Numbered from the stretch's first letter, positions 8,215-63,801 are shown. The stretch is 64,000 nucleotides of DNA from Gammaproteobacteria bacterium (GCA_021648525.1 JAKISP010000001.1:2061-66060); one strand, 5' to 3'. Made by a program: numbers and translations. The notes: generated by a model from the sequence alone, not told the origin.

Positions 8215-8311
8215 TCACCAACCTCTGTGCAAAATTTCAAACGTACGGGTAGTAGCGCCATTGTTAAGCCGATAGTATAGTCACAGATATTTGCAACTAT
8301 AAGGAAGAATC

Positions 8312-9148: not shown

Positions 9149-9168
9149 GACAGGGGCTGAAAAATATT

Positions 9169-9474: not shown

Positions 9475-9512
9475 TTGAAAACAAAGGGAAATGGGCCTAA
9501 GCTGAATTTAGC

Positions 9513-10160: not shown

Positions 10161-10310
10161 CTCTCAAGATGATAAACCACCCATCAATTAGTTGCCTGAA
10201 CGATACATGCCTTGATGTCGAGCCGTCCACTACTCAGTTCCCTCTCACAGGCGCGACAATTTGCCGCGCGACACTGTCGTCACATTCTCGCACATGGAAA
10301 CGGCAGTGAC

Positions 10311-10335
10311 ACAAAAAGTGGGCATTGCTGCCCAC
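10311..10335 (-). terminator. intrinsic terminator downstream of guaA
   Basis: On the minus strand there is a GTGGGCA-GCAA-TGCCCAC hairpin followed by TTTTTGTGT. It lies between the guaA stop (10356) and the CBS gene. Confidence 0.55.
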
Positions 10336-10355
10336 CTTTATCAAAGAGCTAACCG

Positions 10356-31635: not shown

Positions 31636-32222
31636 CAAATAACATACATCATTATAGCCAGCTCTGACTTGATACATCGACCGCCTACCCCTTTTCAAAA
31701 TATCGAATGAAGTTTCTATCTACCATTCCAGGCACTCTATCGTGCTTTTTTCTAGCCATCCATATAACAACAGAAGGCGATATGGCATGAAGACCCATTA
31801 AAATATATCCATATATTTTGATTTTCTGCTCAGATTTTTGTGCGTAGCAAAACCTGAGCTTTAGCGCTATTACCCATGGTTATCGGCCAATCAAAACTAC
31901 TTTGCAAGCATTATCCTACGCTAGAAGCTCAATAATAGCCGCGCCAGGCCTTAAACCTCCTTCTAAAATCAACATTTAACCAATGAATACAATCAGGTAA
32001 CAATATTCCGCATCCTAAAAGCAAAAAAGTAGGTAAAACGGCTAAAAATCACCAATTGTGATAAAGCATACCGGTTGAAAAGGGGAATATTCTACATTGT
32101 GAACCGCAAGGTTAATCATGAGCCTTCGCCAAAAGACTTTTCTGAAATATTAAGGTCAGAATAATACATAAAAAATGTAAAATTATTATAAATCAAAGCA
32201 TTGTATTGTATTGTATTTCAAA

Positions 32223-38040: not shown

Positions 38041-38194
38041 TAAAGATGCAATCAGTCAGCAATTCGCCTATACAATGAGGCAGGTTTAATCATCCACCAA
38101 ACATCACCCGCTGATGACCATCAGCGCTTTCAACCTGTGGGCTCCTCTATAACGACAGCACTTAGCAATACACAAAGCAAAAAGTCACGCTATA

Positions 38195-38383
38195 ATGATC
38201 GTTCACACAATTGGATTACACAATATGAATCGTGGTTATGCCGCTTTATACCTGATTACAGCTGTATTCTTTTATCTCGGGTGGAAGACGCGAAAAACAA
38301 ACCCGCTGCTGTCAACCGCACTGTATACCGTTGCAACCATTATCACCGTGCTATTAATTGGCGGCCACTTTGGGTTGCTCTGA
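38195..38383 (+). CDS. possible small two-TM membrane protein
   Basis: It is a 62-aa ORF in the convergent gap between the Zn-ribbon and VanZ-like genes. It has two hydrophobic segments (ALYLITAVFFYLGW and ALYTVATIITVLLIGG). There is no clear Shine-Dalgarno. Confidence 0.3.
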   Translation: MIVHTIGLHNMNRGYAALYLITAVFFYLGWKTRKTNPLLSTALYTVATIITVLLIGGHFGLL

Positions 38384-38392
38384 CAAAGCAAG

Positions 38393-39328
38393 TTACGGAA
38401 TCAAGCGAATATCATCCAGATAAAATTCCCGTCGCATCTCTGTTCTGCTCAGAAATAAAATCATCTTTCTAACTTTACCCAGGTCTAACAGACGTGATTT
38501 AGGCCCATTAACAACATCAGCCAATGGAATCAAAAGCGTATTGGCTCCAGTATTAATCTGATACTGTCCATTATATCGATCACCATAATCCGGCGAGTTA
38601 CTGCTCCCATCATCAATACGAATATTCAGTTTAAATGGTTTACCAACATTATAAAGCTCAATATTTAAGAATTGGTAACCGCGCCAGTCCTGATCTCCCG
38701 CCGAGTAGCGCGCACCACTCCAGGTATTATCGGTCGTTTTCGTTTTTAGTGACTTCGAGCCAACGACAACATGCTTATCTGAAAGCGATGTAGAGGTACC
38801 GATACCATGCGCCTTCCACAGCCTTTTTTCTAAATCACGCTCAAAACCACCCAATACTGGAAATTGTTGATCTCGCAACCACACGGCACGCCACTCGTTC
38901 AACGCAGGTTGCACTACCCAGACTAGCGTCAACACTAACAATAACAGGTAAACTCCTTTGAACAGCTGACGCGACTGTCTACGCCAGACAATTATCCCAC
39001 TGAGCGCGAGAAATACCCCTAGCAACCCCATCTGCACATCTGCAAATGATGCCGTTCTTCCAACATAAGGCTGTACCAGCTCAACGGCAACCATTAACAA
39101 CACAGAGATTACCATTGAGAAGACTATCGCACGCCATTCTCCATATGGTTCAACAGCAAAATAAAATAAGCCACTCAACAAAATAAAGGCAAATGCATGC
39201 CCAGCATCCATTGTTTTCATCACTGCAACTGGATTAGCACTACTACCAAATGGCACAAACGCAAGCAGCGCAAAGAGCGCCAGCATGACAAAAACCGCCA
39301 TCAGATAAGTTTGTTTAAATACGGCCAT
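38393..39328 (-). CDS. VanZ-like family membrane protein with C-terminal extracytoplasmic domain
   Basis: The N-terminal roughly 120 aa carry 4 TM helices in VanZ-like arrangement (FAFILLSGLFYF...VISVLLMVAVELVQPYVGRTASFADV). The C-terminal roughly 180 aa form a beta-rich domain of unknown function. Confidence 0.6.
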   Translation of the reverse strand: MAVFKQTYLMAVFVMLALFALLAFVPFGSSANPVAVMKTMDAGHAFAFILLSGLFYFAVEPYGEWRAIVFSMVISVLLMVAVELVQPYVGRTASFADVQMGLLGVFLALSGIIVWRRQSRQLFKGVYLLLLVLTLVWVVQPALNEWRAVWLRDQQFPVLGGFERDLEKRLWKAHGIGTSTSLSDKHVVVGSKSLKTKTTDNTWSGARYSAGDQDWRGYQFLNIELYNVGKPFKLNIRIDDGSSNSPDYGDRYNGQYQINTGANTLLIPLADVVNGPKSRLLDLGKVRKMILFLSRTEMRREFYLDDIRLIP

Positions 39329-39353
39329 TTAGATTTAAGTACTCATTCAACTT

Positions 39354-40061
39354 TTATCGAGAAAGAAATGAAATCATCCACTGCGCAATCAACTGTTCAT
39401 CTGTTCGCTGCTGCAATGAATCGATGCCGGCAGTATAAACTGATGCGCCCAATCGTTTACGACGAAAGCCCATTAAGGCCTCTGCATAAGGTTTTGAGAA
39501 CTCAGGGTGTCCCTGAATCGTAAGAATACTCTCATCTAGCTGAAACATCGCATACGGACAAAAATCACTGCCTGCAATTAATTTAGCCCCTGGTGGCAAT
39601 TCATCTACCTGATCCTGGTGACTCACCAGCACATGGCACACACCATCCATTGGCGTTGCCTCCATCCAGGGCACAGCAGTTGCCACCCGCATCGCGTGCA
39701 CACCCACCCCCCACCCTTTATCAGATTGACTTATTTTACCACCAAAAGCCTGAGCCACTAATTGATGACCAAAGCAGATCGCAATTAGCTTTATTTTCAC
39801 CTTTCGTAACCGAATAATAAAGGCCTGCAATACCCTGATCCACGCATTATCATCATATACACTGGCCTTACTACCCGTAGTGATATAGGCATCACACGCA
39901 TCAAGCGATGCAGGATAATGGCCAGCGACTACATCATAGACCTCATAGCTGAAAGCGCGCGCTAGCGGATGAAATAGAGAGGTGATCATCTCAGGATAGT
40001 CTCCGTACTGGCCCTTAAACTGCGATCTCACCGAGTCACACCGCAAGATCCCAACTTTCAT
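39354..40061 (-). CDS. class I glutamine amidotransferase-like hydrolase (gamma-glutamyl-amide hydrolase candidate, PuuD-like)
   Basis: The GATase1 catalytic Cys context is LIAICFGHQLVAQAFGG, with a His/Glu dyad region (TIQGHPEF). It is divergent from the GS-like ligase gene. Confidence 0.75.
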   Translation of the reverse strand: MKVGILRCDSVRSQFKGQYGDYPEMITSLFHPLARAFSYEVYDVVAGHYPASLDACDAYITTGSKASVYDDNAWIRVLQAFIIRLRKVKIKLIAICFGHQLVAQAFGGKISQSDKGWGVGVHAMRVATAVPWMEATPMDGVCHVLVSHQDQVDELPPGAKLIAGSDFCPYAMFQLDESILTIQGHPEFSKPYAEALMGFRRKRLGASVYTAGIDSLQQRTDEQLIAQWMISFLSR

Positions 40062-40200
40062 TTATTCATGCCCTTTAAAAAATCCATTAAAAAAAACCTG
40101 TTAAGAACATTTGAATTACGCGATAGTATTAGATACTTTATATCTATCGCTCCTATAATAGATAAGCAGTTTCGCACGATAACAAGGAAAAAGCGCCATA

Positions 40201-41568
40201 ATGCACGCCAGAGAAGTTAAGAGTATTGCCGATGCAAAAAACATCGTCAATGAGCGTAATATCCGTCATATAAAAATTGGTATTTTCGATATTGACGGTG
40301 TGTTACGCGGTAAATATATCTCACGAGACAAGTTCTTTTCTGCCCTCGACAAAGGCGCTGGTTTTTGCGATGTCGTTCTGGGCTGGGATAGCAAAGACCA
40401 GCTCTACGACAATGTTGATTTCACTGGCTGGCACACTGGCTATCCCGATGCACCTGTCCGTATCATCCCAGATTCGTGCCGCGACATCCCATTTGAAGAA
40501 GAGACACTCTTTTTCCTCGGCGAGTTTACCGCTGATGCAGCAGCACTCTGTCCTCGTGGACTGCTACAGCGCACGATCGAAAAAGCCAGTCAAATGGGCC
40601 TCTTTCCTAACGCTGGCTTTGAGTATGAGTTTTTCATCTTCGAAGAAACACGCGAATCCATTCGCAAAAAACAGTATCGAGATTTAACCCCGCTAGCACC
40701 TGGCAACTTTGGCTATTCGGTACTGCGCAATAGTGTAGATGCTGAAATCTACCAGCAAATCCTTGATCTTGGTGAAACAATGGATTTTCCAATCGAAGCA
40801 CTGCATGAAGAGACCGGCCCCGGCGTACTTGAAGCCGCCATCACTTACGACAGCGCCCTCAACGCCGCAGATAAGGCCGCCCTGTTCAAAACCTTCACCA
40901 AAATAGCAGTGCAACGCGCCGGACTGATGGCAACCTTCATGGCAAAATGGTCAGCAAACCACCCAGGGCAGAGTGGCCACATACATATCTCCCTCAATGA
41001 TGCTGAAGGCACCTCAATTTTTTATGATGCTAACAAACCAGATAACATGAGTGATACCATGCGCCATTTTGTTGCAGGCCAGCAACAATTCATGCCTGAA
41101 TTACTTGCCATGATCGCACCAACCATCAACTCGTACACTCGTCTGGTGCCGGGTTTTTGGGCACCCACCGTTGCCACCTGGGGTGTTGAAAATCGCACAT
41201 GTGCGCTACGCGTTATCACTGGTAACGCCAGCGCTCAACGTGTCGAATACCGGGTTGCGGCTGCTGATGCTAACCCTTACATCATCCTCGCTGCTGCACT
41301 GGCCTCAGGGCTAGCCGGTATTGAGCAGAAACTAGCGCCTGACGATAAGGTGAGTGGCAACGCCTATGAACAACAATTCCCCGCTGAGCGCCAACTACCC
41401 ACCACCCTGTGGGAGGCCGCGCAACGACTTAAAGGATCAAGCATGGCAAGGGGATATTTTGGAGATCACTTTGTCGATCACTACACCGCGAGTCGAGAGT
41501 GGGAGGAACGCGAATTCCGCAAACATATCACCGATTGGGAAATGGACCGCTACTTTGAGATCATATGA
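40201..41568 (+). CDS. glutamine synthetase-family gamma-glutamyl:amine ligase (PuuA/GlnA3/IpuC-like)
   Basis: It is 455 aa with a GS catalytic domain (GFEYEFFIF, MAKWSANHPGQSGHIHISL, NPYIILAAALASGLAGIE). It lacks the GlnA adenylylation-loop context. Confidence 0.85.
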   Translation: MHAREVKSIADAKNIVNERNIRHIKIGIFDIDGVLRGKYISRDKFFSALDKGAGFCDVVLGWDSKDQLYDNVDFTGWHTGYPDAPVRIIPDSCRDIPFEEETLFFLGEFTADAAALCPRGLLQRTIEKASQMGLFPNAGFEYEFFIFEETRESIRKKQYRDLTPLAPGNFGYSVLRNSVDAEIYQQILDLGETMDFPIEALHEETGPGVLEAAITYDSALNAADKAALFKTFTKIAVQRAGLMATFMAKWSANHPGQSGHIHISLNDAEGTSIFYDANKPDNMSDTMRHFVAGQQQFMPELLAMIAPTINSYTRLVPGFWAPTVATWGVENRTCALRVITGNASAQRVEYRVAAADANPYIILAAALASGLAGIEQKLAPDDKVSGNAYEQQFPAERQLPTTLWEAAQRLKGSSMARGYFGDHFVDHYTASREWEEREFRKHITDWEMDRYFEII

Positions 41569-42950
41569 TGCCGACCTTTAAAGTTATCTCACCCAACAAT
41601 AATCGCAGCTATGTAGAACGCACTTATGCGACCAATGCAAAGATCGAACACACACTGGAAAAGTCATTATTTGCACAGCGTGAATGGCGCAACACCCCTG
41701 TTGAGGTGCGAAAGAAAATCTGTCTCAAAGCCGTCAGCGCACTATTAGCAAGGCAATCAAGCATCGCCGAAGAGTTAAGTTGGCAGATGGGACGCCCCCT
41801 ACGCTACACCCCAGGTGAAATAAAAGGCTTTGCCGAGCGCGCTCGCCATATGGCCAGAATTGCCGCAAACAAACTTACCGATATTGAGATAGAGAGATCA
41901 ACAGAAAGCACAAAATTGATTCGCCGCACGCCACACGGCATTGTCTTCTCCATCGTGCCGTGGAACTACCCCTATCTCACCGCTGTGAATGTGATCATTC
42001 CTGCATTAATGGCCGGTAATAGCGTTATCATGAAGCCCTCATCGCAAACACCACTCACTGCTGAGCGCCTCTTTGATGCCTTTGACACGGCAGGCTTACC
42101 CGCCGGCCTGTTTCAGTACCTCTTTCTTGACCACCCCAGCACTGCAAAATTGATTCAGCACGATGCGATCAACTATGTCTCTTTTACCGGTTCAACTCAG
42201 GGCGGGCGCGACATTGAAGCCGCTGCCGTAGGACGTTTTATCGGTATCGGCCTGGAACTTGGCGGCAAAGACCCCGCCTATGTACGTCATGATGCCGAAC
42301 TAGAACATGCCGTTGAACATTTGATCGACGGGGCATTTTTTAATTCTGGACAATCCTGTTGCGGCATTGAACGAATTTATGTTCACAAAACGCTCTACCA
42401 GCAGTTTTGTGACAATTTTATTGAATTGACTCGTGAATACCGCCTCGGTGATCCGCTCCACCCCGATACCACACTCGGCCCGATGGTTAACGCCATTGCT
42501 GCCACACGCGTACGCGATCAAATCAGCGATGCAATTAAACAAGGGGCCACACCAACCATTGATGAAAAACGTTTTACAGCAAGCAAGGCTGGCACCGCTT
42601 ACCTTGCCCCACAAGTGCTGCTGAATGTTGACCATTCCATGTCAGTCATGCGCGATGAAAGCTTTGGGCCTGTCGTCGGCATTATGTCTGTCGATTCAGA
42701 TGAACAGGCGATCAAGCTAATGAACGACTCACCTTACGGCCTGACGGCCTCAATCTGGACCACCGATCAGGAATCGGCACTGAACATCGGCAACCAATTG
42801 GAGACAGGAACCTGTTTCATGAATCGCTGTGACTACCTCGATCCAGCACTGGCATGGAGCGGTGTGAAAAACTCAGGAAAAGGCTGCTCGCTTTCAGAGC
42901 TTGCCTATGAACGCCTCACCCAGCCAAAGTCATTTTATTTTAGTCACTGA
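41565..42950 (+). CDS. NAD(P)+-dependent aldehyde dehydrogenase
   Basis: ALDH motifs are present: the ELGGKDP Glu site, catalytic Cys in GQSCCGIERIYV, and FTGSTQGG. Its start overlaps the ligase stop (ATGA). Confidence 0.9.
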   Translation: MMPTFKVISPNNNRSYVERTYATNAKIEHTLEKSLFAQREWRNTPVEVRKKICLKAVSALLARQSSIAEELSWQMGRPLRYTPGEIKGFAERARHMARIAANKLTDIEIERSTESTKLIRRTPHGIVFSIVPWNYPYLTAVNVIIPALMAGNSVIMKPSSQTPLTAERLFDAFDTAGLPAGLFQYLFLDHPSTAKLIQHDAINYVSFTGSTQGGRDIEAAAVGRFIGIGLELGGKDPAYVRHDAELEHAVEHLIDGAFFNSGQSCCGIERIYVHKTLYQQFCDNFIELTREYRLGDPLHPDTTLGPMVNAIAATRVRDQISDAIKQGATPTIDEKRFTASKAGTAYLAPQVLLNVDHSMSVMRDESFGPVVGIMSVDSDEQAIKLMNDSPYGLTASIWTTDQESALNIGNQLETGTCFMNRCDYLDPALAWSGVKNSGKGCSLSELAYERLTQPKSFYFSH

Positions 42951-42958
42951 CAAAAGCC

Positions 42959-44140
42959 ATGAAAAAGAGCAGCAATAAATTACACGGTAACTGGAATTAC
43001 CCCACCACCCTGTGGTTCGGCGCTGAGCGTATCACAGAGCTTGCCACCGCCTGCAAAACACTCAACATGCGCCACCCATTACTCGTCACTGACCCCGGCC
43101 TCAGTCGGCTGCCAATGGTGAGTGAGGCGCTCTCCTATAACAAAGCACAGGGCATTCCCACCGGGCTATTCAGTGATATTAAGCCCAATCCAAACGGCTT
43201 AAATATCGAGAATGGCATTAAGTATTACCGTCAAAATAAACATGACGGTGTCATCGCTTTTGGCGGCGGCAGTGCACTTGATGCAGGCAAGGCGATTGCG
43301 CTAATGAGTGGGCAGACACAGCCACTGTGGGCATTCGAAGATACCGGTGATAACTGGCAGCGTGTCGACAGTAACGGAATTGCCCCCATCATTGCAGTGC
43401 CCACCACCTCCGGCACAGGCTCAGAGGTAGGCCGAGCATCACTTATTGTCGATGAAGAAAAACATTGTAAAAAAATCATTTTTCATCCCAGAATGCTACC
43501 CAGCATTGTTATTGCCGACCCACAACTCACTACCGGACTACCCGCCAATATCACCGCCGCAACCGGCATGGATGCGCTTTCCCACAACCTTGAGGCATAC
43601 TGCGCCCCAGCCTACCACCCGATGGCAGATGGCATCGCACTGGAAGGAATGCGCCTGATCAAAGAGTGGCTCATCATTGCCTGCGAAGAGCCACAAAACA
43701 TTGAAGCGCGTAGCCAGATGATGATCGCATCCACCATGGGGGCAACCGCTTTTCAGAAAGGACTCGGTGCAATGCACGCCCTCGCCCACCCAATCGGGGC
43801 AATTTATGATGCACATCACGGCCTGCTCAATGCCATCCTGATGCCCTATGTCTTACTCAGGAACCGCCCTGCAATTGACACTCGCATGCGACACCTGGCA
43901 CGTTATCTCGAACTCGATGGTAACGACTTTGACGCGGTATTCGACTACATCATCACCTTACGCGCTCACATCGGTATTCCTGATGATTTGCGCAGCATTG
44001 GCATCGACGAGCACCGTATTGATGAGATCGCCACCCTGGCACTGCAGGACCCCTCCGCTGCTGGTAATCCTGTTCCACTGACTCAGGCGCAATATTCAAC
44101 ACTACTCAGCGACGCGATCAACGGCAACTTAAAGAATTAA
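42959..44140 (+). CDS. iron-containing (group III) alcohol dehydrogenase
   Basis: Fe-ADH motifs are present: GGGSALDAGKAIA, and His ligands in MHALAHPIGAIYDAHHG. Confidence 0.9.
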   Translation: MKKSSNKLHGNWNYPTTLWFGAERITELATACKTLNMRHPLLVTDPGLSRLPMVSEALSYNKAQGIPTGLFSDIKPNPNGLNIENGIKYYRQNKHDGVIAFGGGSALDAGKAIALMSGQTQPLWAFEDTGDNWQRVDSNGIAPIIAVPTTSGTGSEVGRASLIVDEEKHCKKIIFHPRMLPSIVIADPQLTTGLPANITAATGMDALSHNLEAYCAPAYHPMADGIALEGMRLIKEWLIIACEEPQNIEARSQMMIASTMGATAFQKGLGAMHALAHPIGAIYDAHHGLLNAILMPYVLLRNRPAIDTRMRHLARYLELDGNDFDAVFDYIITLRAHIGIPDDLRSIGIDEHRIDEIATLALQDPSAAGNPVPLTQAQYSTLLSDAINGNLKN

Positions 44141-44304
44141 GAAACCGCTGAATAAAGCCTGCTTTTCAGCATAAAACAAGGGTAATAGCGTTAAAAGAGC
44201 ACGCGCCATTACCTGCTGGTCGAATCTAAAGTGACTGCGTTATAGTTTTAAGAAAAATTGCCGATCAATTCTATAGTCCATTCTATTTCTTAACACCTGA
44301 TAAC

Positions 44305-45210
44305 ATGCTGAAGATATTAAAATTTTTTTCCAAAAAGAGAGCAACAACCAGCCAATCAGCAAGCGTGCGCGTGGTACTGGACAGTGCCCGACTATGCCAA
44401 CTGCTGCCCTATTTTCCCATCGGAGCTAATCTCAGGTATTTTCCAGAATACAGGCAAGAAATAACTCTGGACTCCATCATTATTGCCTACTTAATAAATG
44501 ATGAGGTTATTTACTCAAACAATGATCTCTCCACTACAGATGATAACCATCATTTGATATTGAATGGCGCTATGGTTGATGAAATCAACAACTTTGCTTT
44601 TCTCATTCCTGCCGTCAGCCGCAACGAAACTGAGCTGGACTACGAACAAAAAGAAATACTGGAACAGAGCGGTGGCCTGGCAAAAGGCAATAGCATAACC
44701 TTAATCGGACAGCAAACCGACGGCAAGATCCCATTCATTGACACGCTGGTAACAAAACATACGCGCTTCAAAGAAGGGCATTTCAACAACACTCAAGTGG
44801 TTGCGCTCAATGTCGATCCAACGCTATTAGAACTGAAGGACCAACGAAGTCAAACAAGGTTAGCCGCAAAAATCCCTGCTCTGATACAGACAAAGCTCTA
44901 TAACGAGAAACATCAATGCACCCTTATCGATTTCTCAGAACACACGGTCAAAATCTGCTGTGATGATAATGAAATAATTTCGATAAGCTGCACGAAAGGT
45001 GAAATAATCACCCTCACATTCAACCTTCCCTCCAGTACCACACCTAAAGTCATGAAAGGCAGAGTACTTAAAATTGATGGCCCAGCACTGATTGCCGAAC
45101 TTGAAGAAATACTGGTTGACCAACGATTCAAGAAGCTCACCACCCTCGATATTTTAGAGATTAAAACCAAATTACTTCAGCAACCACTAACATCAACTAA
45201 CACGACATAA
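44305..45210 (+). CDS. hypothetical protein, possible degenerate PilZ-like C-terminal domain
   Basis: This is the first gene of the AT-rich island. RSQTR (RxxxR) is followed about 25 aa later by DFSEHT, resembling the PilZ RxxxR...DxSxxG pattern but lacking the Gly. Confidence 0.45.
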   Translation: MLKILKFFSKKRATTSQSASVRVVLDSARLCQLLPYFPIGANLRYFPEYRQEITLDSIIIAYLINDEVIYSNNDLSTTDDNHHLILNGAMVDEINNFAFLIPAVSRNETELDYEQKEILEQSGGLAKGNSITLIGQQTDGKIPFIDTLVTKHTRFKEGHFNNTQVVALNVDPTLLELKDQRSQTRLAAKIPALIQTKLYNEKHQCTLIDFSEHTVKICCDDNEIISISCTKGEIITLTFNLPSSTTPKVMKGRVLKIDGPALIAELEEILVDQRFKKLTTLDILEIKTKLLQQPLTSTNTT

Positions 45211-45275
45211 ACAACTCATTTAGCCCCGTAAATGCCATCACAACGAGTGATCACACGCGCATCAAAGTCGCCTGT

Positions 45276-45824
45276 TTATCTACCAATAAAATTGCACTGC
45301 TCATCATCGGTTAAGGTGACATTGCTCTGCTCCAGTTTCAATAAGCGTTTTTTTGTTGTCAACCCGCCAGCATAACCAACCAATCGCCCGTCACTTCCAA
45401 TTATGCGATGGCAAGGTATAATTAATCCGATAGAATTTGCACCATTAGCAGCAGCTACTGCTCGAACAGACTTCTGATTATTGATGTTTTTTGCCAATTG
45501 CAGATAGGTTGATGTAACGCCATAAGGAACTTTCATCAATGCGCACCAGACTTTTTTCTGGAAATCAGTTCCTACTGTTAAAAGTGGAATATCAAATTTT
45601 TGTCTATCACCACTAAGATACTCGCCGAGTTGATTCCTTGTTTTTTCCAACACCTCATGATCCTGCTCAACATACTCGGCATTCAGTCCTTTTTTTATCC
45701 TGTTATCTACGGTTATTCTCATTCTTCTATGTTTAAAATCAAGAAGACACAATTGATGCTGAAATGAACCCAGTATCATTTCACCAACCCTGGATTTGTA
45801 ATGTTGTATGTTAATTTGATTCAT
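45276..45824 (-). CDS. ogt: methylated-DNA--protein-cysteine methyltransferase (Ogt/MGMT)
   Basis: The active site is IPCHRIIGSDG and the DNA-binding helix is TYLQLAKNINNQKSVRAVAAANGANSIGLIIPCHR. I chose Met 45824 because its ATG overlaps the upstream gene's TGA (ATGA). Confidence 0.8.
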   Translation of the reverse strand: MNQINIQHYKSRVGEMILGSFQHQLCLLDFKHRRMRITVDNRIKKGLNAEYVEQDHEVLEKTRNQLGEYLSGDRQKFDIPLLTVGTDFQKKVWCALMKVPYGVTSTYLQLAKNINNQKSVRAVAAANGANSIGLIIPCHRIIGSDGRLVGYAGGLTTKKRLLKLEQSNVTLTDDEQCNFIGR

Positions 45825-46600
45825 CTTTCTGTGAATAGACAGCAAAATGATTGCGTGTCTTTAATCTCCGTCAAAATGGCTTTTAGGTTATCATTCGTTT
45901 TGCTGTATACAAATGGCCCCATGCTTATTCTCTTTACCCCAATTCGCTCAAGAATCGAAAAATCTGGCAAATTGGACACTGCCATGACATTCACCGGCAG
46001 AGACACGCTATCGACAAGACACTTGATTTCATTTTCATCTGAAATACAAGGGATGAATATTCCATCGGCTCCCGCTTCTTCGTAAAGCTTTGCTCGTGAC
46101 ATTGACTGGTTTAAAGCATTATCAAGGCCGATGACATAAGGATCCGTTCGAATATTTAAAAAAATATTTATATTTTTTTCGAGAAAATATTGTTTTATCG
46201 ATTTAATTGTTTCAACGAAAATTGTTGAATCGACCAGATTTCTATTACCATCTTCGACGATAGAATCTTCTAGATTAACACCAACCACACCCAACTGACT
46301 TAACAGGACAATATTCTCTATTATTTTGCTATTTTTCCTGCTGTATCCTGCTTCAATATCAACTGTTAGTGGGATAGTGATTTTCGATACAATAGATTGA
46401 ACGACAGAATAAAGTTCATCAAAAGATATCTGTTCACCATCTTCATACCCTAGTGAACTAGCAATTGCAGCACTTGAGGTACCCAATGCTTTAAAGCCCA
46501 TTTTTTCAAACATTAACGCACTTTGTACATCCCACACGTTACCAATCAATAATGACTGTTTTTTCTGGTGTGATAAATTAAACGCCTGGAAGTGACTCAT
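45821..46600 (-). CDS. isocitrate lyase/PEP mutase superfamily enzyme (not bona fide PEP mutase)
   Basis: It has the ICL/PEPM TIM-barrel pattern (LLIGNVWDVQSALMFEKMGFKALGTSSAAIA...VDIEAGY...GVNLEDS...GADGIFIPC). It lacks the EDKxxxxxNS motif of true PEP phosphomutases. Confidence 0.75.
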   Translation of the reverse strand: MSHFQAFNLSHQKKQSLLIGNVWDVQSALMFEKMGFKALGTSSAAIASSLGYEDGEQISFDELYSVVQSIVSKITIPLTVDIEAGYSRKNSKIIENIVLLSQLGVVGVNLEDSIVEDGNRNLVDSTIFVETIKSIKQYFLEKNINIFLNIRTDPYVIGLDNALNQSMSRAKLYEEAGADGIFIPCISDENEIKCLVDSVSLPVNVMAVSNLPDFSILERIGVKRISMGPFVYSKTNDNLKAILTEIKDTQSFCCLFTER

Positions 46601-46705
46601 TATTAATCTCCTTTACTATTGTGAAAGGAGATTATAAATAATTCACTAACGCTATTCATTCACTTAGATTCATTTTTTAATTTTCTCAATGTTTGCGGTG
46701 CTACC

Positions 46706-47218
46706 TCAGGGCGTGTTGTTATGCGCATTTTCACTTCTGGCCCACGAACTGATAATTTCACTGGTTAATTGAAACTTACCGAAATCATATTGAAAAAGCG
46801 CCTCCCTTGAAACAACCTTTATCTCAGCTATTTCTGTACTGAGAGATAACGCCCCTTTAGCCTCAAGATGATAGGCAATTATAAGCTGATTGTTTTTCGG
46901 GAATTTAAAATGACCAATAAATTTGAGCGACATACAGGCATAACCAAGCTCTTCCTTTAATTCTCTTGAAATTGACTCTTCTGGCGTTTCATTTTTTTCC
47001 ATAAAGCCCGTTATGACAGAAAACACCTCTTTCGGCCATTCTGAGTTTCTCGCTAGCACATAATTATTACCCAACTGGACTAGACCAGCCACTACCGGAA
47101 CTGGATTGTTCCAATTGACGAAATCACACCCGTCAGATACACACACATTTTTATAGGCACCATCTATTTCTTGTTTTATAAGTTGACTAGCGCAGTTCGG
47201 GCAAAATTTCATGGCCAA
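46706..47218 (-). CDS. NUDIX hydrolase with N-terminal zinc ribbon
   Basis: The zinc ribbon is CPNCASQ...CVSDGC. The Nudix box is ESISRELKEELGY. Its start is 1 nt from the upstream tautomerase-like stop. Confidence 0.8.
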   Translation of the reverse strand: MAMKFCPNCASQLIKQEIDGAYKNVCVSDGCDFVNWNNPVPVVAGLVQLGNNYVLARNSEWPKEVFSVITGFMEKNETPEESISRELKEELGYACMSLKFIGHFKFPKNNQLIIAYHLEAKGALSLSTEIAEIKVVSREALFQYDFGKFQLTSEIISSWARSENAHNNTP

Positions 47219-47219
47219 A

Positions 47220-47603
47220 TTACACGTTTAATTTGTAGTTCAATTTGGCTTCATCCCCAGTAATACCCCTGAACCCCCAACAGTGTGCAGGCTGTTCTTT
47301 GATTGTTATTTCAACATCGACTGGCGATATACCTATTTCACTCTCAACCCTCTGGAATATCTCTTTAATCAATGCCTTCTGAGTTTCATGCTCCCGACCG
47401 GTCATCATGTTTATTTCAATCACGGTATATGCATCGCTACGCCCACCAGGGTAGTAGAAATCTTCCTTGTCCAGAGGAATAAATCGATGAGCCCTTTTAT
47501 CTTCTGGCATTCCGAGAACAGACTGCATACAACCATGTATCACATCTGATAGCTTAGCTTTAACCGGATTCAATCTTTCTTTAATGCCATATACTACGAT
47601 CAT
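47220..47603 (-). CDS. tautomerase-superfamily-like small protein (tentative)
   Basis: It is 127 aa. The C-terminal half has a beta-alpha-beta tautomerase-like pattern (VIEINMMTGREHETQKALIKEIFQRVESEIGISPVDVEITIKEQPAHCWGFRG), but there is no Pro1. Confidence 0.4.
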   Translation of the reverse strand: MIVVYGIKERLNPVKAKLSDVIHGCMQSVLGMPEDKRAHRFIPLDKEDFYYPGGRSDAYTVIEINMMTGREHETQKALIKEIFQRVESEIGISPVDVEITIKEQPAHCWGFRGITGDEAKLNYKLNV

Positions 47604-47777
47604 AACTATTCCTTAAACGCATATCGCCAGCATCACCAGCGGCAAAAAGTAGAGCGGTGAGGAACGAGGAGGTTCCCTACGTAAAATGTGCCAACAAGGA
47701 CTTAGTTGTTATGCTTGAATAAGTAATCATACTTGCAGTTTGCATACGTGTCTGGCACCAGGTATCAACAATGAAAA

Positions 47778-48461
47778 TCAATCTATACTATTGAGTCTCC
47801 AGCCTATTTCTACCGGCCTGCCCTTATCTGGCCTGCTCAGTATTAGCAAATCTACATGCTTGCCATGAGCATTTCGAGCGTACCATTCAGATTGAATAAG
47901 TAAGTCTTCAAATCCATCGCTAGTGAAATCACCACGTGCCAGCAGCGTTAAATAGACCTCATCCGCCTTTGTAAGTAATTTGAAGATATTTTCTTTCTCA
48001 AGCGTAATTTGAATGCTGGCGTCATAAAATTTAATTGACAGATCTTGCCTTTTGATAGTATCAGCTTTGCTCAATAGCGGCGTTATAGCGGCTGGTAACT
48101 GGTAGATGAAATTTGTGTTCAGTTTGGACGGGAAGTTATTTGTGTGTGCAGTACTAGCTGTAGAATATTTATCTATAGCTTTACACGATACCAGAAGAAG
48201 CTTAAAACGGAAGTAGTCGTAGTCGACTATTTTTGAAATATCGATACCATTAGCCTGTTTGCAGCTAGTAATGACAAGCTTTCCACCTTCTATTGACTGG
48301 TATTCGTAGTTGGATAGAGCAGGCTGACTAATATCCAACTGGCTTACAAAGCTAAATCCAGGAAATTGTTCCTGGTATAGTTTTGCATCAATCATAGTAC
48401 TGCTAGTTGAGCATGCCTGAAGAAAAGCAAAGGACAGAAAAATAATGAATAATTTTCTCAT
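47778..48461 (-). CDS. lipoprotein (candidate immunity/partner protein of the adjacent lysozyme)
   Basis: The lipobox is MRKLFIIFLSFAFLQAC. It starts 5 nt after the lysozyme stop. I recognised no family. Confidence 0.55.
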   Translation of the reverse strand: MRKLFIIFLSFAFLQACSTSSTMIDAKLYQEQFPGFSFVSQLDISQPALSNYEYQSIEGGKLVITSCKQANGIDISKIVDYDYFRFKLLLVSCKAIDKYSTASTAHTNNFPSKLNTNFIYQLPAAITPLLSKADTIKRQDLSIKFYDASIQITLEKENIFKLLTKADEVYLTLLARGDFTSDGFEDLLIQSEWYARNAHGKHVDLLILSRPDKGRPVEIGWRLNSID

Positions 48462-48466
48462 CGTGT

Positions 48467-49096
48467 TTAGGGCGTAGAAGGAGTTGGTTTGGCTGCAACA
48501 GGTATGGTATTGAGCAATTGTTTAACATACTGGTTTCGTGCAGTATTAACATCGGGGCGGTTGGACTCAGTAGCCGCTTTTTTCCAATCACCCGCTTTTA
48601 AAGCTTTATTGAAGCTGGGAAAGCTACCAGTAATCTTCGTAGCACCAAGGTTGAATATCATATCGAACAGCGCTAACTGTACGTTTTTGTGCAGTTTGTC
48701 GAAGTCATCAGGGTAGCCATTAGATTTTTTATAAATGTTAGTTAGCTCAGTGTAAAAGCTATTAATGTGTTTATCCCTTTGTGTATTAATGTCACTGTCT
48801 TTCATAACTAGCGTGGTATGAGACTTGAAACTACTTGCACCATATCGCTGGCCATAGGGTAGTTTGGAGATTTTATCGTATTCAGCCTGCTTCTCAGTAA
48901 GATTTGCCAGTAGAAAGGGAAACTTGTTTTTTAATTTATATAGCGCAACAGTCGCTATAGCATTCCGGTTGGGTATGAGATGACCTATACCAATGGTAAC
49001 TTTGCCTTTGGTATCCAGATAAAGATGACTAAAACGCCCTTCATATTGCTCAATTTTCTTCACAAGCTCCGATTTAATATTGACAGCTAGTGACAT
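48467..49096 (-). CDS. T4-type (GH24) lysozyme / muramidase
   Basis: The catalytic-triad spacing is identical to T4 lysozyme E11-D20-T26: IEQYEGRFSHLYLDTKGKVTIGIGH has E, then D at +9, then T at +6. The C-terminal lobe FNLGATKITGSFPSFNKALKAGDWKKAA matches [27 protein letters not shown]. An AGAGGGGG Shine-Dalgarno lies 5 nt before the chosen Met at 49096. Confidence 0.75.
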   Translation of the reverse strand: MSLAVNIKSELVKKIEQYEGRFSHLYLDTKGKVTIGIGHLIPNRNAIATVALYKLKNKFPFLLANLTEKQAEYDKISKLPYGQRYGASSFKSHTTLVMKDSDINTQRDKHINSFYTELTNIYKKSNGYPDDFDKLHKNVQLALFDMIFNLGATKITGSFPSFNKALKAGDWKKAATESNRPDVNTARNQYVKQLLNTIPVAAKPTPSTP

Positions 49097-49586
49097 AAAT
49101 ACCCCCTCTAAAAAAATTATCATGTGTATATTAACTGATCTTAACTTCTAAGGACACCATGGATGTGACTGTAAGTTTGTAGATGATTGGTGGGGACGCA
49201 CGGTGCTCTGTACTATGCCTTTGCTCCTGGTCATCCTGGCCGACTCATTACCCAGGGGCGCACCGTGGAAAACAATTCACATCCTAATAAACCTTGCTGA
49301 TCACATACCAACAATACCTGTTCGAAAACAGATTTGATATCCTCTAGCTTACTGCTAATGAATTGGAGTACGCAAAAAGAATGACTTTTAATATCCTAAG
49401 GTCATAAGCAGGACGACCATTAAAATCGTTTTTATAACGTGGATAAAAAACACTCAGATCAAGGTTATTTTCACATGAATATCAAAATAAGAATATTTAA
49501 CGTGCCTGAGCGTAATTGATCTTCCAGGCTCAAGGCCAACAATAGGTCTTGACAGTAGTTCGTGCGCATTTATTGCTTTTGTCAGG

Positions 49587-49621
49587 AAAATTAAAAAATC
49601 CCGCAACAAGAGTTTACGGGG
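49587..49621 (-). terminator. intrinsic terminator after island hypothetical gene
   Basis: On the minus strand there is a CCCCGTAA-ACTCTTG-TTGCGGG hairpin followed by ATTTTTTAATTTT. Confidence 0.45.
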
Positions 49622-49656
49622 TCTAAGTTAATAAACTGTAAAAAAGCTATCAAGGA

Positions 49657-50232
49657 TTAGAAAATACTTCGAGCAATATCTATAAACTGCTTAATTGATT
49701 TTTGCGTTTTTAAAGCACGATTTGTACTCAGAGTGAATATTTTCTGATCAGTTGCCCAGGTTAGCTCACTAAGACCTTTTTCACTTCGGCTCTGTTTTAC
49801 ACTTAAAATTGCAGGGAAACCATTAACATCCTGATTTATAGCCTCTTCAATGAAAGCCACACCGCCTTCCGACACTAGAAAATCAAGTTCCTCAAGCCCA
49901 ATAAGCCCGAATTTTTTGACCACAAAAACCCGATTTAACCCCGTCCAGCCCTCTTCTGTATGCCCACCACTTGCAGATGCTCCTAATAAAGTTGCTTGCC
50001 CAAGTACTGATGCGTCCAGGCTTGCCGGTATTATCGTCAGCACGGAAGATATATCTGCCATGGATTTTAATTGTCTCTCTTTATTTTCGTTTGCCTTATC
50101 TAAATAAGACACAGCATCTTCTGTTACATCTATAAAACCTTTTTCCTTTATTTGTGTGAATTCCAGTTTCGCTTGTGTTTTAAGCACATCAGGAACAGAA
50201 TGTTGTTCCAATGGCAATATCGTTATACCCAT
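49657..50232 (-). CDS. hypothetical protein; N-terminus probably disrupted by a frameshift at an A7/T6 homopolymer (see findings)
   Basis: It is a 191-aa ORF. Upstream, an ATG at 50357 opens MKRVNKFTKKFF*. The +1 frame continues LTTACGIVAISFPFYASHAAPGGAVEPAVS into the annotated Met. Confidence 0.5.
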   Translation of the reverse strand: MGITILPLEQHSVPDVLKTQAKLEFTQIKEKGFIDVTEDAVSYLDKANENKERQLKSMADISSVLTIIPASLDASVLGQATLLGASASGGHTEEGWTGLNRVFVVKKFGLIGLEELDFLVSEGGVAFIEEAINQDVNGFPAILSVKQSRSEKGLSELTWATDQKIFTLSTNRALKTQKSIKQFIDIARSIF

Positions 50233-50721
50233 TGAAACGGCAGGTTCTACTGCACCTCCCGGTGCGGCATGTGAAGCATAGAAAGGAAAGCTAATAGCAA
50301 CTATTCCACAGGCCGTTGTTAAAAAAACTTTTTTGTAAATTTATTAACACGCTTCATGATCGTTGTCCTCTTAATTGGTTTTTGAATGTATTTATATTGC
50401 CAGTGCATTGGATTGCAACCTGTGGCACTCGTGCTCCCTAACAGGTACCGACCTGCGCTAGAGGACCAACACTAATGTTTTCCAGACATATAAAAGCCAC
50501 CAATTAGACCTTCATTCCAATGTATGGCGGCGGCACTCCATTTATGATATTAGAGAAGAAATACAGAATAAACCGTTCAATTTAACAACAATATTTCCTT
50601 AACTATTCAACCCCTCCCTATGCGAAAATTCTAGCGTATTCTATGGATGTTACCACCGCTTTCAGCTTGATTTCAGTTTCATTCGCTATGCTATTTTTCA
50701 ATTTGAATGAGCAGGAGATTA

Positions 50722-53726: not shown

Positions 53727-54218
53727 TTAATGGTCGTGATGTTCACCATCTGGCCCATGCGCATGGCCATGCTCAAGCTCTTCTGCACTCGCATCACGAA
53801 TATCGATCACCTTCACATCAAAGTTAAGCGATACACCTGCTAGCGGGTGATTACCATCAACGATGACATCATCACCATCAAGTTCAATCACAGTCACAAT
53901 CATCATCTCACCTTCAGGGCTTTGCGCATGAAACTGCATGCCAACGTTGATCTCTGCATCTTCTTCAAACATATCTTTTGGCACTGTCTGCAGCAGATCA
54001 TTTTCACGCGCGCCGTAACCTTCTTCCGGCGATACGGCAACACTCACCTCATCGCCCGCTACTTTGCCAGCCAGCGCATTTTCAAGCCCTGGCACGATGT
54101 TACGTGCACCATGTAGATAGACAAAGTCACCCTGCCCTTCTGAACTATCAATGAGTGTGCCTTCCTCATTTTTGAGGGTGTAGTCCAATGTTATGACTTT
54201 TTGATCTGCAATTTGCAC
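53727..54218 (-). CDS. slyD: FKBP-type peptidyl-prolyl cis-trans isomerase / metallochaperone SlyD
   Basis: It is collinear with E. coli SlyD (LHGARNIVPGLENALAGK..., IF domain, VDGNHPLAG) and has a His-rich tail HGHAHGPDGEHHDH. I chose the GTG start at 54218 after an AAGGAG Shine-Dalgarno. Confidence 0.85.
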   Translation of the reverse strand: MQIADQKVITLDYTLKNEEGTLIDSSEGQGDFVYLHGARNIVPGLENALAGKVAGDEVSVAVSPEEGYGARENDLLQTVPKDMFEEDAEINVGMQFHAQSPEGEMMIVTVIELDGDDVIVDGNHPLAGVSLNFDVKVIDIRDASAEELEHGHAHGPDGEHHDH

Positions 54219-54573
54219 GTAAAACTCCTTAAAGATATGAAATACAAAATTTTGCGGTGAAAACATCGCTGCACCACTTTATCGCCCAGCATTATAAACG
54301 CAAATACTGATTTTCCATTAAATTTCTATTACTCACGTCGAATAAAGACACAAAAGCACACTGACAACGCTTCAATTAACATAAAAAACTAAATAACAAC
54401 CTGTTTTAATTGATTTTTCTAAAATAACCCTCCTTTTTTACTGGTGGCAACCCTGACTGAACTAAACGTTCCCGACGATCTAATCAGTGAAGCGGCTGCA
54501 ATAGCTGAAAGCACTCGCAACGATGTTTTAGGAAAATAATATAAGACGCATGTAGTCGGTTTTTTCCTCGTTA

Positions 54574-61510: not shown

Positions 61511-62329
61511 CTATTTAGCTGCTTTTTCATCGAGCATTTTTTTAAGCTGAACGGCGGGTACATAACCCGGTAGCAAACTACCATCTTCGAATACCAGCGC
61601 CGGTGTGCCACTCACACCGATCTTCCGAGCCAGTGCCATATGCTCCTTCACAGGATTTTCACAGTCACGCTTTTTCGGTTGCTGCTTATTTTTCGCCAAT
61701 GTCATTTCATCTAGCTGATCATCAGCACACCAGACTGAAACAATCTTTTCATATGAGCGACTACCAACCCCCGCACGAGGAAAAGCTAGATAGCGAATTT
61801 CAATCCCCTCACGAAGGTAGTCCGCCATTTCATGATGGAGTTTCTGGCAGTAAAAACAGTCAACATCGGTAAACACATCGACCACATACTTGCGCTTGTC
61901 CTTTTCGGGAATAAAACGAATTTTGGTATCAAGCGCTACCGTTTCCATCAGCTTATGACGGCCCTGTGTGCGTCGCGCTTCAGTAAGATTATCCTGCGTC
62001 GTTAGATCAACCATATCGCCCTGGAACAGGTAACGACCATCCGCTGAGAGATAAAAAATATCCGAGCCGTAGACCACTTCAAATAGCCCTTTGTAACGAC
62101 TCTCTTCAACCAGATCCGGTGTCTGACCGGGAATGATTCTGGATAGTGTTTTTCTCACAGCACTGTCGTCAAGCTGGCCAGCGGGTACAACGAAACGATC
62201 CTCAGGCGAATCAGCTATCGCAATAACACGCTGTTCCACCCCGCCAGACGCAGTGCCTTTGTCTGCAAAAACAGCACTTGAAATAGTGAGCAGTGAGGCC
62301 ACTGCAGCTACCATCATTGTTTTCATCAT
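61511..62329 (-). CDS. dsbC: thiol:disulfide interchange protein DsbC/DsbG family
   Basis: A signal peptide (MMKTMMVAAVASLLTISSAVFA) starts from the internal ATGATG. There is an N-terminal dimerisation domain. The thioredoxin fold carries CFYCQKLH (CxxC) and a cis-Pro region GTPALVF. Confidence 0.8.
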   Translation of the reverse strand: MMKTMMVAAVASLLTISSAVFADKGTASGGVEQRVIAIADSPEDRFVVPAGQLDDSAVRKTLSRIIPGQTPDLVEESRYKGLFEVVYGSDIFYLSADGRYLFQGDMVDLTTQDNLTEARRTQGRHKLMETVALDTKIRFIPEKDKRKYVVDVFTDVDCFYCQKLHHEMADYLREGIEIRYLAFPRAGVGSRSYEKIVSVWCADDQLDEMTLAKNKQQPKKRDCENPVKEHMALARKIGVSGTPALVFEDGSLLPGYVPAVQLKKMLDEKAAK

Positions 62330-62399
62330 ATTTCCCACGGTTACCCAGCATTGCACAAGAGATTGTCATCATAGCAAAATTTGCCCCGTAACCGCGCCC

Positions 62400-63332
62400 T
62401 TATCCTCTTGGGTGATGAGCCGCATGCATCTCCTTAAGTCGTTCTCGCGCAATATGAGTATAAATCTGCGTGGTAGAGAGATCACTGTGACCGAGCAGCA
62501 TCTGCAATACCCTCAAATCTGCACCATGATTAAGCAGGTGCGATGCAAAGGCGTGGCGCATGACATGAGGGGAGAGTGGCTTATTAATGCCAACATCCAG
62601 CGCATGACGTTTAATCAAATACCAGAATGCCTGGCGCGTCATCGAACCACCTCGTCGCGTCACAAAAAGCGCACTGCTTATTTTTCCTTTCAATAAATCA
62701 GGGCGTACCTCTGCCTGGTACTGTTCAATCCACTCCAACGCCTCTTCGCCCAGCGGCACCAAACGCTCCTTGCTGCCTTTACCGATGACCCGCACTACTC
62801 CCTGAGAGAGACTAACACGCGCAGTATCCAGTTCGACCAATTCTGAAACACGCAGTCCTGTGGCATAAAGTACTTCTAGCATCGCACGATCACGCAGGCC
62901 CAAATAGGTCGTCACATCAGGTGCATTTAATAAACGTTCTACCTCATCTTCAGTTAACGTTTTAGGCAATGGCCTGCCTAATTTAGGGGACTCGATCTGC
63001 GCACTTGGGTCTTCATTTAACTCGCCTTCTCGTACCAGGTATTGATACAGACGTCGCATCGTCGAAAGGATGCGCGCACTCGAACGCGCATGCATTCCTT
63101 TTGAAACACAATAAGCCAGATAGGCTAGCAGATCATTTCGCCCAACAGTCATCAAGCTATTTTTACTACTCGCCAGCCATAAGGCCAATTTTTTTAGATC
63201 AGAACGATAAGCCGCCAGGGTGTTTTTGCTCAGGCCACGCTCCATCCAGAGCGCATCGAGGAATCGATCAATCAGACTGCTATCCTGTTCTGATAGCACA
63301 TTCATCGTAGCGGCATCGTTACTGCTTTTCAT
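62400..63332 (-). CDS. xerD: site-specific tyrosine recombinase XerD (chromosome dimer resolution)
   Basis: It is collinear with E. coli XerD (FLDALWMERGLSKNTLAAYRSDL, ATGLRVSELV, VIGKGSKERLVPLGEEA, HVMRHAFASHLLNHGADLRVLQMLLGHSDLSTTQIYTHI). It is adjacent to dsbC as in enterics. Confidence 0.95.
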   Translation of the reverse strand: MKSSNDAATMNVLSEQDSSLIDRFLDALWMERGLSKNTLAAYRSDLKKLALWLASSKNSLMTVGRNDLLAYLAYCVSKGMHARSSARILSTMRRLYQYLVREGELNEDPSAQIESPKLGRPLPKTLTEDEVERLLNAPDVTTYLGLRDRAMLEVLYATGLRVSELVELDTARVSLSQGVVRVIGKGSKERLVPLGEEALEWIEQYQAEVRPDLLKGKISSALFVTRRGGSMTRQAFWYLIKRHALDVGINKPLSPHVMRHAFASHLLNHGADLRVLQMLLGHSDLSTTQIYTHIARERLKEMHAAHHPRG

Positions 63333-63801
63333 GATTCAGCAACCACTGCTTAAAATCTAATTCGGCACCATCGCGTTGCCCATTAAAACCACCCAGGCCA
63401 TTCGCTGCAACGATTCGATGACACGGCACTACAATCGGTACTGGGTTACGGCGGCAGGCGCCACCGACTGCCCGTGCAGCACTCTTTAGTGCGGTTGCAG
63501 CATCACCATAAAGGCGTGTCTCACCAACTGGAATTGCACACATAAACTGCCAGACACGCTGTTGAAAGTCACTACCCTGTAATACCAGCGGTAGTGAAAA
63601 CGGCCGTTGTGAGTCTTCAAAATAACACTGTAATTGATGCACAACCTCTTGTGACACCGCGTCAATCGGCACTTTAGTTTGCATATTCATTGAAAGCAGG
63701 TCAATGCTCGCCAGCTCATCTCCCACCACCAGAATACCAAGGCGTATCGAGTCAATAGGAGTAGCAATTACGGCATCATAACTTAGCGGGTCGGCAAGCA
63801 T
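63319..63801 (-). CDS. methylated-DNA--protein-cysteine methyltransferase (second Ogt/MGMT paralogue)
   Basis: The active site is VPCHRIVAANG. The helix-turn-helix region is YGDAATALKSAARAVGGACRRNPVPIVVPCHR. Its 3' end overlaps the xerD start by 14 nt. Confidence 0.8.
   Translation of the reverse strand: MLADPLSYDAVIATPIDSIRLGILVVGDELASIDLLSMNMQTKVPIDAVSQEVVHQLQCYFEDSQRPFSLPLVLQGSDFQQRVWQFMCAIPVGETRLYGDAATALKSAARAVGGACRRNPVPIVVPCHRIVAANGLGGFNGQRDGAELDFKQWLLNHEKQ

Follow-up and report, generated by a model that had tools for sequence, protein, structure and literature searches.

The 64,000 nucleotide stretch examined here (positions 2061-66060 of contig JAKISP010000001.1, assembly GCA_021648525.1, from a Gammaproteobacteria bacterium; below "the window," with positions counted from its first letter) carries a strongly AT-rich interval between an Fe-ADH gene and a cytochrome b561 (cyt b561) gene. 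The locus raises the question of whether this interval was acquired horizontally and, if so, where it begins and ends, whether it arrived as one piece, and what kind of element it is. A previous sequence-only reading placed it at 44150-50710 and described it as one horizontally acquired island, eight of whose nine genes form one leftward array. Comparison with related and unrelated loci points to a smaller and more composite element: positions 45211-50609 probably constitute a small non-autonomous islet made up of at least four separately acquired AT-rich modules, situated at a plastic intergenic spot between blocks of core genes and now decaying.

Borders and base composition of the interval

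To the left of the interval, a genome scan with the Fe-ADH protein returned four related metagenome-assembled genomes (MAGs), L001, L014, L003, and L002, in which this protein is 87%, 82%, 78%, and 76% identical, respectively. The left block, window positions 38150-45210 with the glutamine-synthetase-like, aldehyde dehydrogenase, Fe-ADH, and PilZ-like genes, is syntenic in all four. Similarity to the window stops at the stop codon of the PilZ-like gene at 45210; the genes downstream are unrelated, and the region after the PilZ-like gene differs among all four relatives. The PilZ-like gene itself (44305-45210, plus strand) lies downstream of the Fe-ADH gene in each of them, directly after it in L001 and with one gene between the two in L002, L003, and L014. 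It has only a weak PilZ match in Pfam, shows 54-75% tblastx identity to the relatives, and has a host-like GC content at third codon positions (GC3) of 0.454. The region upstream of it is kept in L001, which has no island, and the L001 ortholog region, at 42-44% GC, is as AT-rich as the window copy. Since the gene and its upstream region are conserved in relatives, the left 1.06 kb of the interval (44150-45210) is host DNA and, judged by synteny, the PilZ-like gene is a conserved host gene and not cargo. An AT-rich neighbor of this sort can be wrongly included on composition alone.

On the other side, a metagenome scan with cyt b561 yielded loci L020 to L026, whose proteins are 76-90% identical. 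The right block, comprising genes for cyt b561, PepSY, a response regulator, a histidine kinase, FKBP, and onward (50707 to beyond 60921), is syntenic throughout this set. To the left of cyt b561 these loci carry unrelated genes, with no match to any window gene. Exact-sequence look-ups of the PilZ-like, cyt b561, and PEP-mutase-family proteins matched no recorded entry. Nucleotide alignment places the right junction at ~50609/50610, immediately before a conserved promoter block of cyt b561 (50610-50706, plus strand) that aligns with L020, L021, L022, L023, and L026. We also note that a TTTCAG-N5-TTTCAG direct repeat at ~50656-50680, upstream of cyt b561, is kept in the same five loci; it is probably a binding box, putatively for the OmpR-type response regulator of the cyt b561-PepSY-response regulator-histidine kinase cluster.

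Homology to relatives thus ends at 45210 and restarts at ~50610, so that the foreign low-GC segment, which as a whole has no strand, spans ~45211-50609 (5.4 kb) and fills precisely the gap between two synteny blocks, the left one ending with the PilZ-like stop codon and the right one beginning with the cyt b561 promoter. Both borders proposed from the sequence therefore had to be moved inward, the left one to 45210/45211 and the right one from 50710 to ~50609. Neither the left-side relatives (L001-L003 and L014) nor the right-side ones (L020-L026) have any of the seven cargo genes beside the conserved flanks, and no relative in this comparison carries the same genes at the same locus with the same composition. 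Horizontal acquisition is upheld for 45211-50609, which is absent at the relatives' locus and whose modules recur in unrelated hosts (below), and is not supported for the PilZ-like region.

The spot at which the segment ends on the right is variable in its own right. Compared with their sister L020, L026, L021, and L022 have a different 2.8-kb insert that lies ~87 nt upstream of cyt b561, at the intergenic spot at which the window island also ends. The L026 insert (7085-9913, against 9890-9913 in L020; 44% vs. 51% GC) is a clean indel that shows no target duplication and no terminal repeats, and it encodes two secreted or lipoprotein-like proteins of 441 and 414 aa. The region upstream of the cyt b561-PepSY-two-component operon stands out as a recurrent insertion point in this uncultured gammaproteobacterial lineage. 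The different insert at the same spot in a sister lineage also bears on the possibility that the contig is chimeric and that an assembly or binning error brought in an AT-rich piece from another organism. The source is indeed a MAG contig, and both junctions coincide with synteny breaks. However, two chimeric joins only 5.4 kb apart without a shared junction repeat are not to be expected, and similar AT-rich patches with the same modules lie inside long contigs of independent assemblies. We regard such an artifact as very unlikely.

The composition of the interval agrees in part with its original description. The GC content is 39.4% in 44150-50710 vs. 48.5% in the rest of the window (47.6% overall), and this is the minimum among all stretches of the same length (6.5 kb) in the window; 1-kb segments outside the interval have a mean of 48.5% with a standard deviation of 2.9%. 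For the foreign segment (measured over 45211-50640) the value is 39.0%, compared with 48.4% for the host part of the window. The interval thus differs from its surroundings in average composition, but the drop is milder than had been described, because only a single patch of ~300-350 nt (46100-46450) comes near 30% (30-32%), and the flanks are at ~48% and not 50%. Intergenic AT-rich dips at ~31900-32100 and ~54150-54450 reach 32-36% GC in 300-nt windows and rival the island minima; local values of 30-35% are therefore not specific to the island. The seven minus-strand genes at 45276-50232 have GC3 values of 0.30-0.41, compared with 0.41-0.57 in the remaining genes of the window, and their Karlin codon bias is raised (median 0.43 vs. 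0.35, p = 0.0007). The deviation in GC and GC3 accordingly holds, and that in codon usage becomes marginal once gene length is matched (see below).

The four modules of the segment

The predicted identities of the genes (PilZ-like, Ogt, PEP-mutase family, Zn-ribbon NUDIX, tautomerase, lipoprotein, T4-type lysozyme, and a frameshifted gene) are borne out by Pfam and NCBIfam, and all seven cargo genes do share one strand (minus). The picture of one island with one array does not survive: the segment resolves into four modules, pieced together and with clipped ends. Three of them turn up elsewhere, each as the same closely linked pair of genes, in unrelated genomes with differing neighborhoods, where they have ~33-45% GC in hosts whose flanks have 42-65%, and they lie below their surroundings in nearly every host.

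Module 1 runs leftward from 46704 to 45276 and contains the gene for a 259-aa enzyme of the PEP-mutase/isocitrate-lyase superfamily (45821-46600, minus strand; PF13714, E = 1e-66), which falls under every NCBIfam equivalog cut-off, and the gene for the O6-alkylguanine-DNA methyltransferase Ogt (45276-45845, minus strand; PF01035 and TIGR00589, with the PCHR motif in its translation). The two genes overlap in the window, and the true Ogt start is likely the ATG at 45824. The same PEP-mutase to Ogt pair is present in L100/L101, L103, and L104-L106, where it is preceded by a Crp-like gene of 191-218 aa. PEP-mutase-family homologs are 67-82% identical overall and 69-82% in these other hosts' loci, with Ogt always next, and the pair has 36-39% GC, always within a wider AT-rich patch, in hosts whose flanking genes have about 42%, 50-58%, and 55-65% GC.

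Nucleotide homology to these loci starts at window position 46701 and ends at the Ogt stop codon. What is left of the Crp-like (cyclic nucleoside monophosphate-binding) regulator gene is its last 14 codons (VAPQTLRKLKNESK, then the stop) at 46663-46704 on the minus strand, the clipped 5' end of the module; the intact regulators of L103, L100, and L104 (191-197 aa) match the window by tblastn through their C-terminal 14 residues only. At the opposite end, the window Ogt stops at the very point at which the L100 and L103 proteins continue into an Ada Zn-finger domain (the alignment ends ...NFIG at 45282). The 14-codon remnant and the Ogt without its Ada Zn domain show that both ends of module 1 have been clipped. 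The DNA downstream of the window Ogt seemed to align to the Ada-Zn coding region, but this alignment proved spurious once translated. In L100 (10789-11505) and L103 (2626-3297) Ogt carries the Ada Zn-binding domain at its C terminus, whereas E. coli Ada has its domains in the opposite order, and Crp-like/PEP-mutase/Ogt(-Ada) forms a recurrent three-gene module. The trio is held by AT-rich patches in L104 (3246-9163) and L103 (1171-3754), at 36-40% GC in hosts of 50-65% GC; the L104 patch also has a PhdYeFM/ParE pair and a sulfatase. Both patches are probably islets comparable to that of the window.

Ahead of the PEP-mutase-family gene is a leader hairpin (46591-46647, minus strand; -21.7 kcal/mol, z = -4.9), which was also picked up as an inverted repeat and whose predicted fold occludes the Shine-Dalgarno sequence and the start codon of that gene. 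It has counterparts in L103 (~1775-1812), L100 (~9955-10005), and L104 (~4230-4265), with compensatory changes in 5 of 18 pairs among four hosts. The hairpin has no match in Rfam and may be a translational switch or an RNA thermometer. By family membership, module 1 would supply an additional suicide protein for O6-alkylguanine repair, whose translation would be coupled to that of a PEP-mutase-superfamily enzyme preceded by a hairpin that occludes the Shine-Dalgarno sequence. Another ogt gene, of host composition, lies at 63319-63801 and overlaps an XerD-type recombinase gene (62400-63332) that adjoins dsbC (61511-62356); the genome therefore has two Ogt paralogs, 30-35% identical to each other.

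Module 2 (from 47628 to 46706) consists of a gene for a 127-aa Tautomerase_2-family protein (47220-47603, minus strand; PF14552, E = 3e-23) and, directly after it, a gene for a NudC-like Zn-ribbon NUDIX hydrolase (46706-47218, minus strand; PF00293, with the NAD+ diphosphatase model NF001299 below its cut-off). Homologs of the NUDIX protein are few (55 in the database). Locus L114 has the same pair in the same order, with 87% and 71% aa identity, respectively, and 77% nucleotide identity, the nucleotide homology covering window positions 47628 to 46716. A 54% identical NUDIX homolog in a host of 68% GC stands alone. In the window the NUDIX stop codon abuts the Crp-gene remnant of module 1 within a few nucleotides. 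From family membership, this cargo would pair a NudC-like NUDIX hydrolase with a protein of tautomerase fold. The sole PADLOC match was a weak one, of the NUDIX protein to a candidate family, and a defense island was rejected as an identity for the segment.

Module 3 (from 49098 to 47778) encodes a 209-aa T4-type lysozyme (GH24, pesticin-like; 48467-49096, minus strand, ATG at 49096; PF00959 and a weak PF16754 match) and, 5 nt downstream, a 227-aa partner lipoprotein (47778-48461, minus strand). The lysozyme is a single domain that has no signal peptide and aligns at the catalytic Glu, Asp, and Thr of T4 lysozyme; its homologs are 84% identical in a Thiotrichaceae MAG, 74% in Vibrio vulnificus, 73% in Methylobacter, and 66% in a Desulfobacteraceae MAG. 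Six lysozyme/lipoprotein loci were compared (the window, the Thiotrichaceae MAG, V. vulnificus, Methylobacter, L119, and L120), and in all six a homologous lipoprotein gene, for 225-234 aa, directly follows the lysozyme gene, overlapping it or 2-5 nt apart. The lipoproteins share an invariant lipobox Cys17, Cys67, Cys93, and a GDFxxDG...EWYAR motif; the window protein has no match in Pfam, NCBIfam, or PDB (the last by sequence and by profile), and its single-sequence AlphaFold model is unusable (pLDDT 35). In the window and in four of the five other loci the GC content of the pair is below that of the remaining locus, and its surroundings are mutually unrelated where the flanks are long enough to judge. 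In L107 the 3' end of the lipoprotein gene is present twice, as 122-nt copies (9236-9357 and 10240-10361) on either side of a ParE/antitoxin pair, which suggests that in the Thiotrichaceae MAG a toxin-antitoxin module has entered directly behind the lysozyme/lipoprotein pair.

A lysozyme gene in an AT-rich segment might suggest a prophage remnant, of which an endolysin and a few moron genes survive. In keeping with this, the lysozyme matches both Phage_lysozyme and a PHROG endolysin, and Ogt and the NUDIX protein are the only others with PHROG matches. But the segment has no structural, replication, integrase, or holin genes, relatives of the lysozyme number 0 among 2.9 million viral contigs, and the invariant neighbor of the lysozyme is the 225-234-aa lipoprotein and not a holin or spanin, in loci none of which (0 of 6) is phage-like. 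A prophage origin is thus extremely improbable.

Module 4 is a frameshifted gene for a secreted protein (49657-50357, minus strand), in which the signal peptide (50357-50322, MKRVNKFTKKFF) is out of frame with the body (50322-49657) at a T-run near 50320, as seen in the translations. The protein has no match in Pfam, NCBIfam, PHROG, or PADLOC; on similarity searches it is a member of a small uncharacterized family of ~250 representative clusters, whose intact members have 220-250 aa and whose match to it starts at residue 35-60. A terminator-like hairpin is predicted after module 4 (49620 to 49600), and the same kind of scan places a promoter-like site for the lysozyme gene at 49144 to 49116. 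The remainder of this part of the segment comprises two orphan non-coding stretches assigned to no strand, one of 558 nt (49099-49656; 38.5% GC, no open reading frame (ORF) of at least 60 aa) and one of 252 nt at the right end (50358-50609), which carries the right-hand border motif of the sequence-only reading, TATTTCCTTAAC, at 50592-50603. Neither shows similarity to any compared locus, and no gene remnants were found in these two stretches, in the spacer, or at the left junction, where they were sought.

Acquisition, mobility, and competing origins

The recurrence of the modules can be set against the idea that the interval is an ancestral low-GC region, i.e., that its genes were present in a common ancestor and have been lost or relocated in the sampled relatives, the low GC being due to function or relaxed selection. 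Cargo homologs at 67-90% identity in environmental Gammaproteobacteria, a divergence like that of core genes, would fit such an origin, as would the marginal codon bias and the adjacent PilZ-like gene, which is clearly ancestral and itself AT-rich at 42%. On the other hand, Vibrio, Methylobacter, a Desulfobacteraceae MAG, and hosts whose flanks range from 42% to 65% GC also carry these modules, which there lie in other neighborhoods and are nearly always AT-richer than their surroundings. In addition, the modules are clipped where they abut each other and host DNA, and 0 of 7 relatives keeps any cargo gene at either flank. Ancestry of the interval is accordingly unlikely.

For the composite islet that we favor, DNA entry would have been passive, by transformation, transduction, or conjugation, and the DNA would then have been fixed through recombination, either within or beside the neighboring core genes or of the illegitimate kind. 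Each new insertion may have erased the ends of those before it, with decay following; the Crp-gene remnant, the lost Ada-Zn domain, and the module 4 frameshift are its signs. Nothing in the islet would be self-mobile today.

Searches for mobility features agree with this. The window of 64 kb contains no tRNA, and the island contains no Rfam family even at permissive thresholds, no integrase, and no transposase. Convincing border or flanking repeats are absent, as are target-site duplications and terminal repeats at the window junctions. The Pfam scan of other window ORFs covered nearly all of those of at least 90 aa, not including a giant ORF at 22798-31698, and found no transposase and no intI-like gene; its sole tyrosine recombinase is the XerD-like protein encoded next to dsbC (62400-63332), 12 kb away. 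The giant ORF, on the minus strand, has 2966 aa. The absence of an integrase, a tRNA, and clear border repeats reported in the sequence-only reading is thus confirmed by the Pfam, tRNA, and repeat scans. The weak tatttc(c)ttaac similarity that it saw at both edges fares differently. No att-like repeat was found at the borders; the left copy of this motif is 0.9 kb outside the true border and is host sequence, conserved (TGTTTCTTAAAAC) upstream of the PilZ-like gene in the island-free L001, and the att-like motif is rejected on this account. The two sites themselves supplied the pattern, which makes its chance statistic (2 found vs. 0.03 expected) circular.

An integron connection was first suggested by the Vibrio and Thiotrichaceae contexts of module 3. 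The V. vulnificus lysozyme/lipoprotein pair lies inside the superintegron, directly after a VVR-type attC: it follows three such sites, with 115 nt between the end of the last one and the ATG. The segment could accordingly be a degenerate cassette array, or cluster of attC sites lacking an integron-integrase (CALIN), in which former cassettes remain and attC sites and integrase have eroded, and the single strand shared by the seven genes and the occurrence of the modules elsewhere among ParE/Phd toxin-antitoxin genes and small same-strand genes would be consistent with this. However, a home-made constrained R''/R' hairpin scan, which recovered the canonical Vibrio attC used as a positive control, gave only background-level candidates in the island (1.6 vs. 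1.05 per kb), mostly intragenic and poorly folded, and on this basis the integron reading was rejected for the window. A promoterless cassette, moreover, would lack the structured leader and the remnant of its own regulator that module 1 has, modules 1 and 2 adjoin each other too closely for an attC to fit between them, and no intI was found in the 64 kb scanned as above. We therefore consider a former cassette array quite improbable for this segment.

Several observations count against a composite islet as the explanation of 45211-50609 and limit our confidence in it. The identity of the cargo genes to their best homologs (80-90%) resembles that of core genes to relatives, so divergence alone is no proof of transfer. 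Codon bias compared with length-matched genes is only marginal (p = 0.056), and the dinucleotide-signature distance of the island is the highest of all chunks by little (75.5, the highest host value being 74.6). No counterpart has been traced for module 4 or for the two non-coding stretches. The nearest relatives are only 76-90% identical in flanking proteins, and the left and right core blocks are non-adjacent in every one sampled; the empty site has therefore never been observed, and rearrangement overlies the insertion history. Finally, the source is a MAG contig, and the two junctions are those of its assembled sequence.

Comparison with known systems

Among the cargo, the lysozyme/lipoprotein pair invites comparison with systems in which a peptidoglycan-degrading toxin is paired with an immunity protein. 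By family membership it would consist of a cytoplasmic T4-type muramidase and a periplasm-facing lipoprotein, resembling such a pair. In Pantoea, immunity genes adjoin the effector genes of a peptidoglycan-hydrolyzing VgrG with Vgi, are bicistronic with them, and have signal peptides (PMC9796082), and in V. fluvialis the pesticin-domain VgrG TssI2 is reported to have a cognate immunity protein, TsiI2 (PMC9620997). Like these systems, the window has a muramidase without a signal peptide followed by a gene for an exported (lipidated) protein, and the pairing is conserved. Unlike them, no VgrG, PAAR, MIX, receptor-binding, or translocation domain, and thus no delivery domain of these kinds, was found in the lysozyme, and none of the six loci has type VI secretion system core genes nearby; one Tdi1_C gene lies ~3 kb from the pair in L120. 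The lipoprotein also differs from known immunity and lysozyme-inhibitor families in having no similarity to them. By analogy, the pair may work like a peptidoglycan-hydrolase toxin and its immunity protein, but we do not file it as a member of these systems.

A bolder interpretation, possible but on present comparisons rather doubtful, is that the pair represents an undescribed and widely mobile two-gene family, in which a stand-alone muramidase would be checked by, or targeted through, its dedicated lipoprotein, for toxin/immunity or for control of self-lysis. Such a family would move among Gammaproteobacteria and beyond, sometimes as an integron cassette, with no recognizable delivery domain. 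If this were true, the island would not hold inert cargo but would be where a selfish or competitive module of a new kind has come to rest.

For the segment as a whole, the classical integrase-mediated genomic island is one point of reference. Low GC, accessory cargo, and sharp borders are common to both, but the window segment has no tRNA, integrase, or att repeats, is very small (5.4 kb), and consists of unrelated modules. The Vibrio superintegron and CALINs share with it the small genes on one strand, and one of its modules is resident in the V. vulnificus array; the window differs in having no detectable attC or intI and in a module 1 that has its own regulator remnant and leader.

Hotspots of horizontal gene transfer, or regions of genomic plasticity, hold accessory DNA between conserved core genes without mobility genes. 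The window segment resembles these in being deviant in composition, confined between core blocks, mosaic, and decaying, with no integrase, tRNA, or repeats, and in the different cargo present at the same spot in sister lineages. It differs from them in that its flanking core blocks are non-adjacent in any sampled relative, with no empty site seen, and the interval is therefore also a rearrangement breakpoint. Overall, the segment fits a plasticity region or hotspot free of mobility genes and does not fit an integrase island, an integron array, or a prophage remnant. Plastic intergenic sites commonly hold small AT-rich islets, and the present one, which is in decay, is of little importance in itself. 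Its interest is as a worked example, in which a supposed island resolves into independently traveling two-gene modules with clipped ends, and it flags the lysozyme/lipoprotein pair and the Crp-like/PEP-mutase/Ogt(-Ada) trio as recurrent mobile modules.

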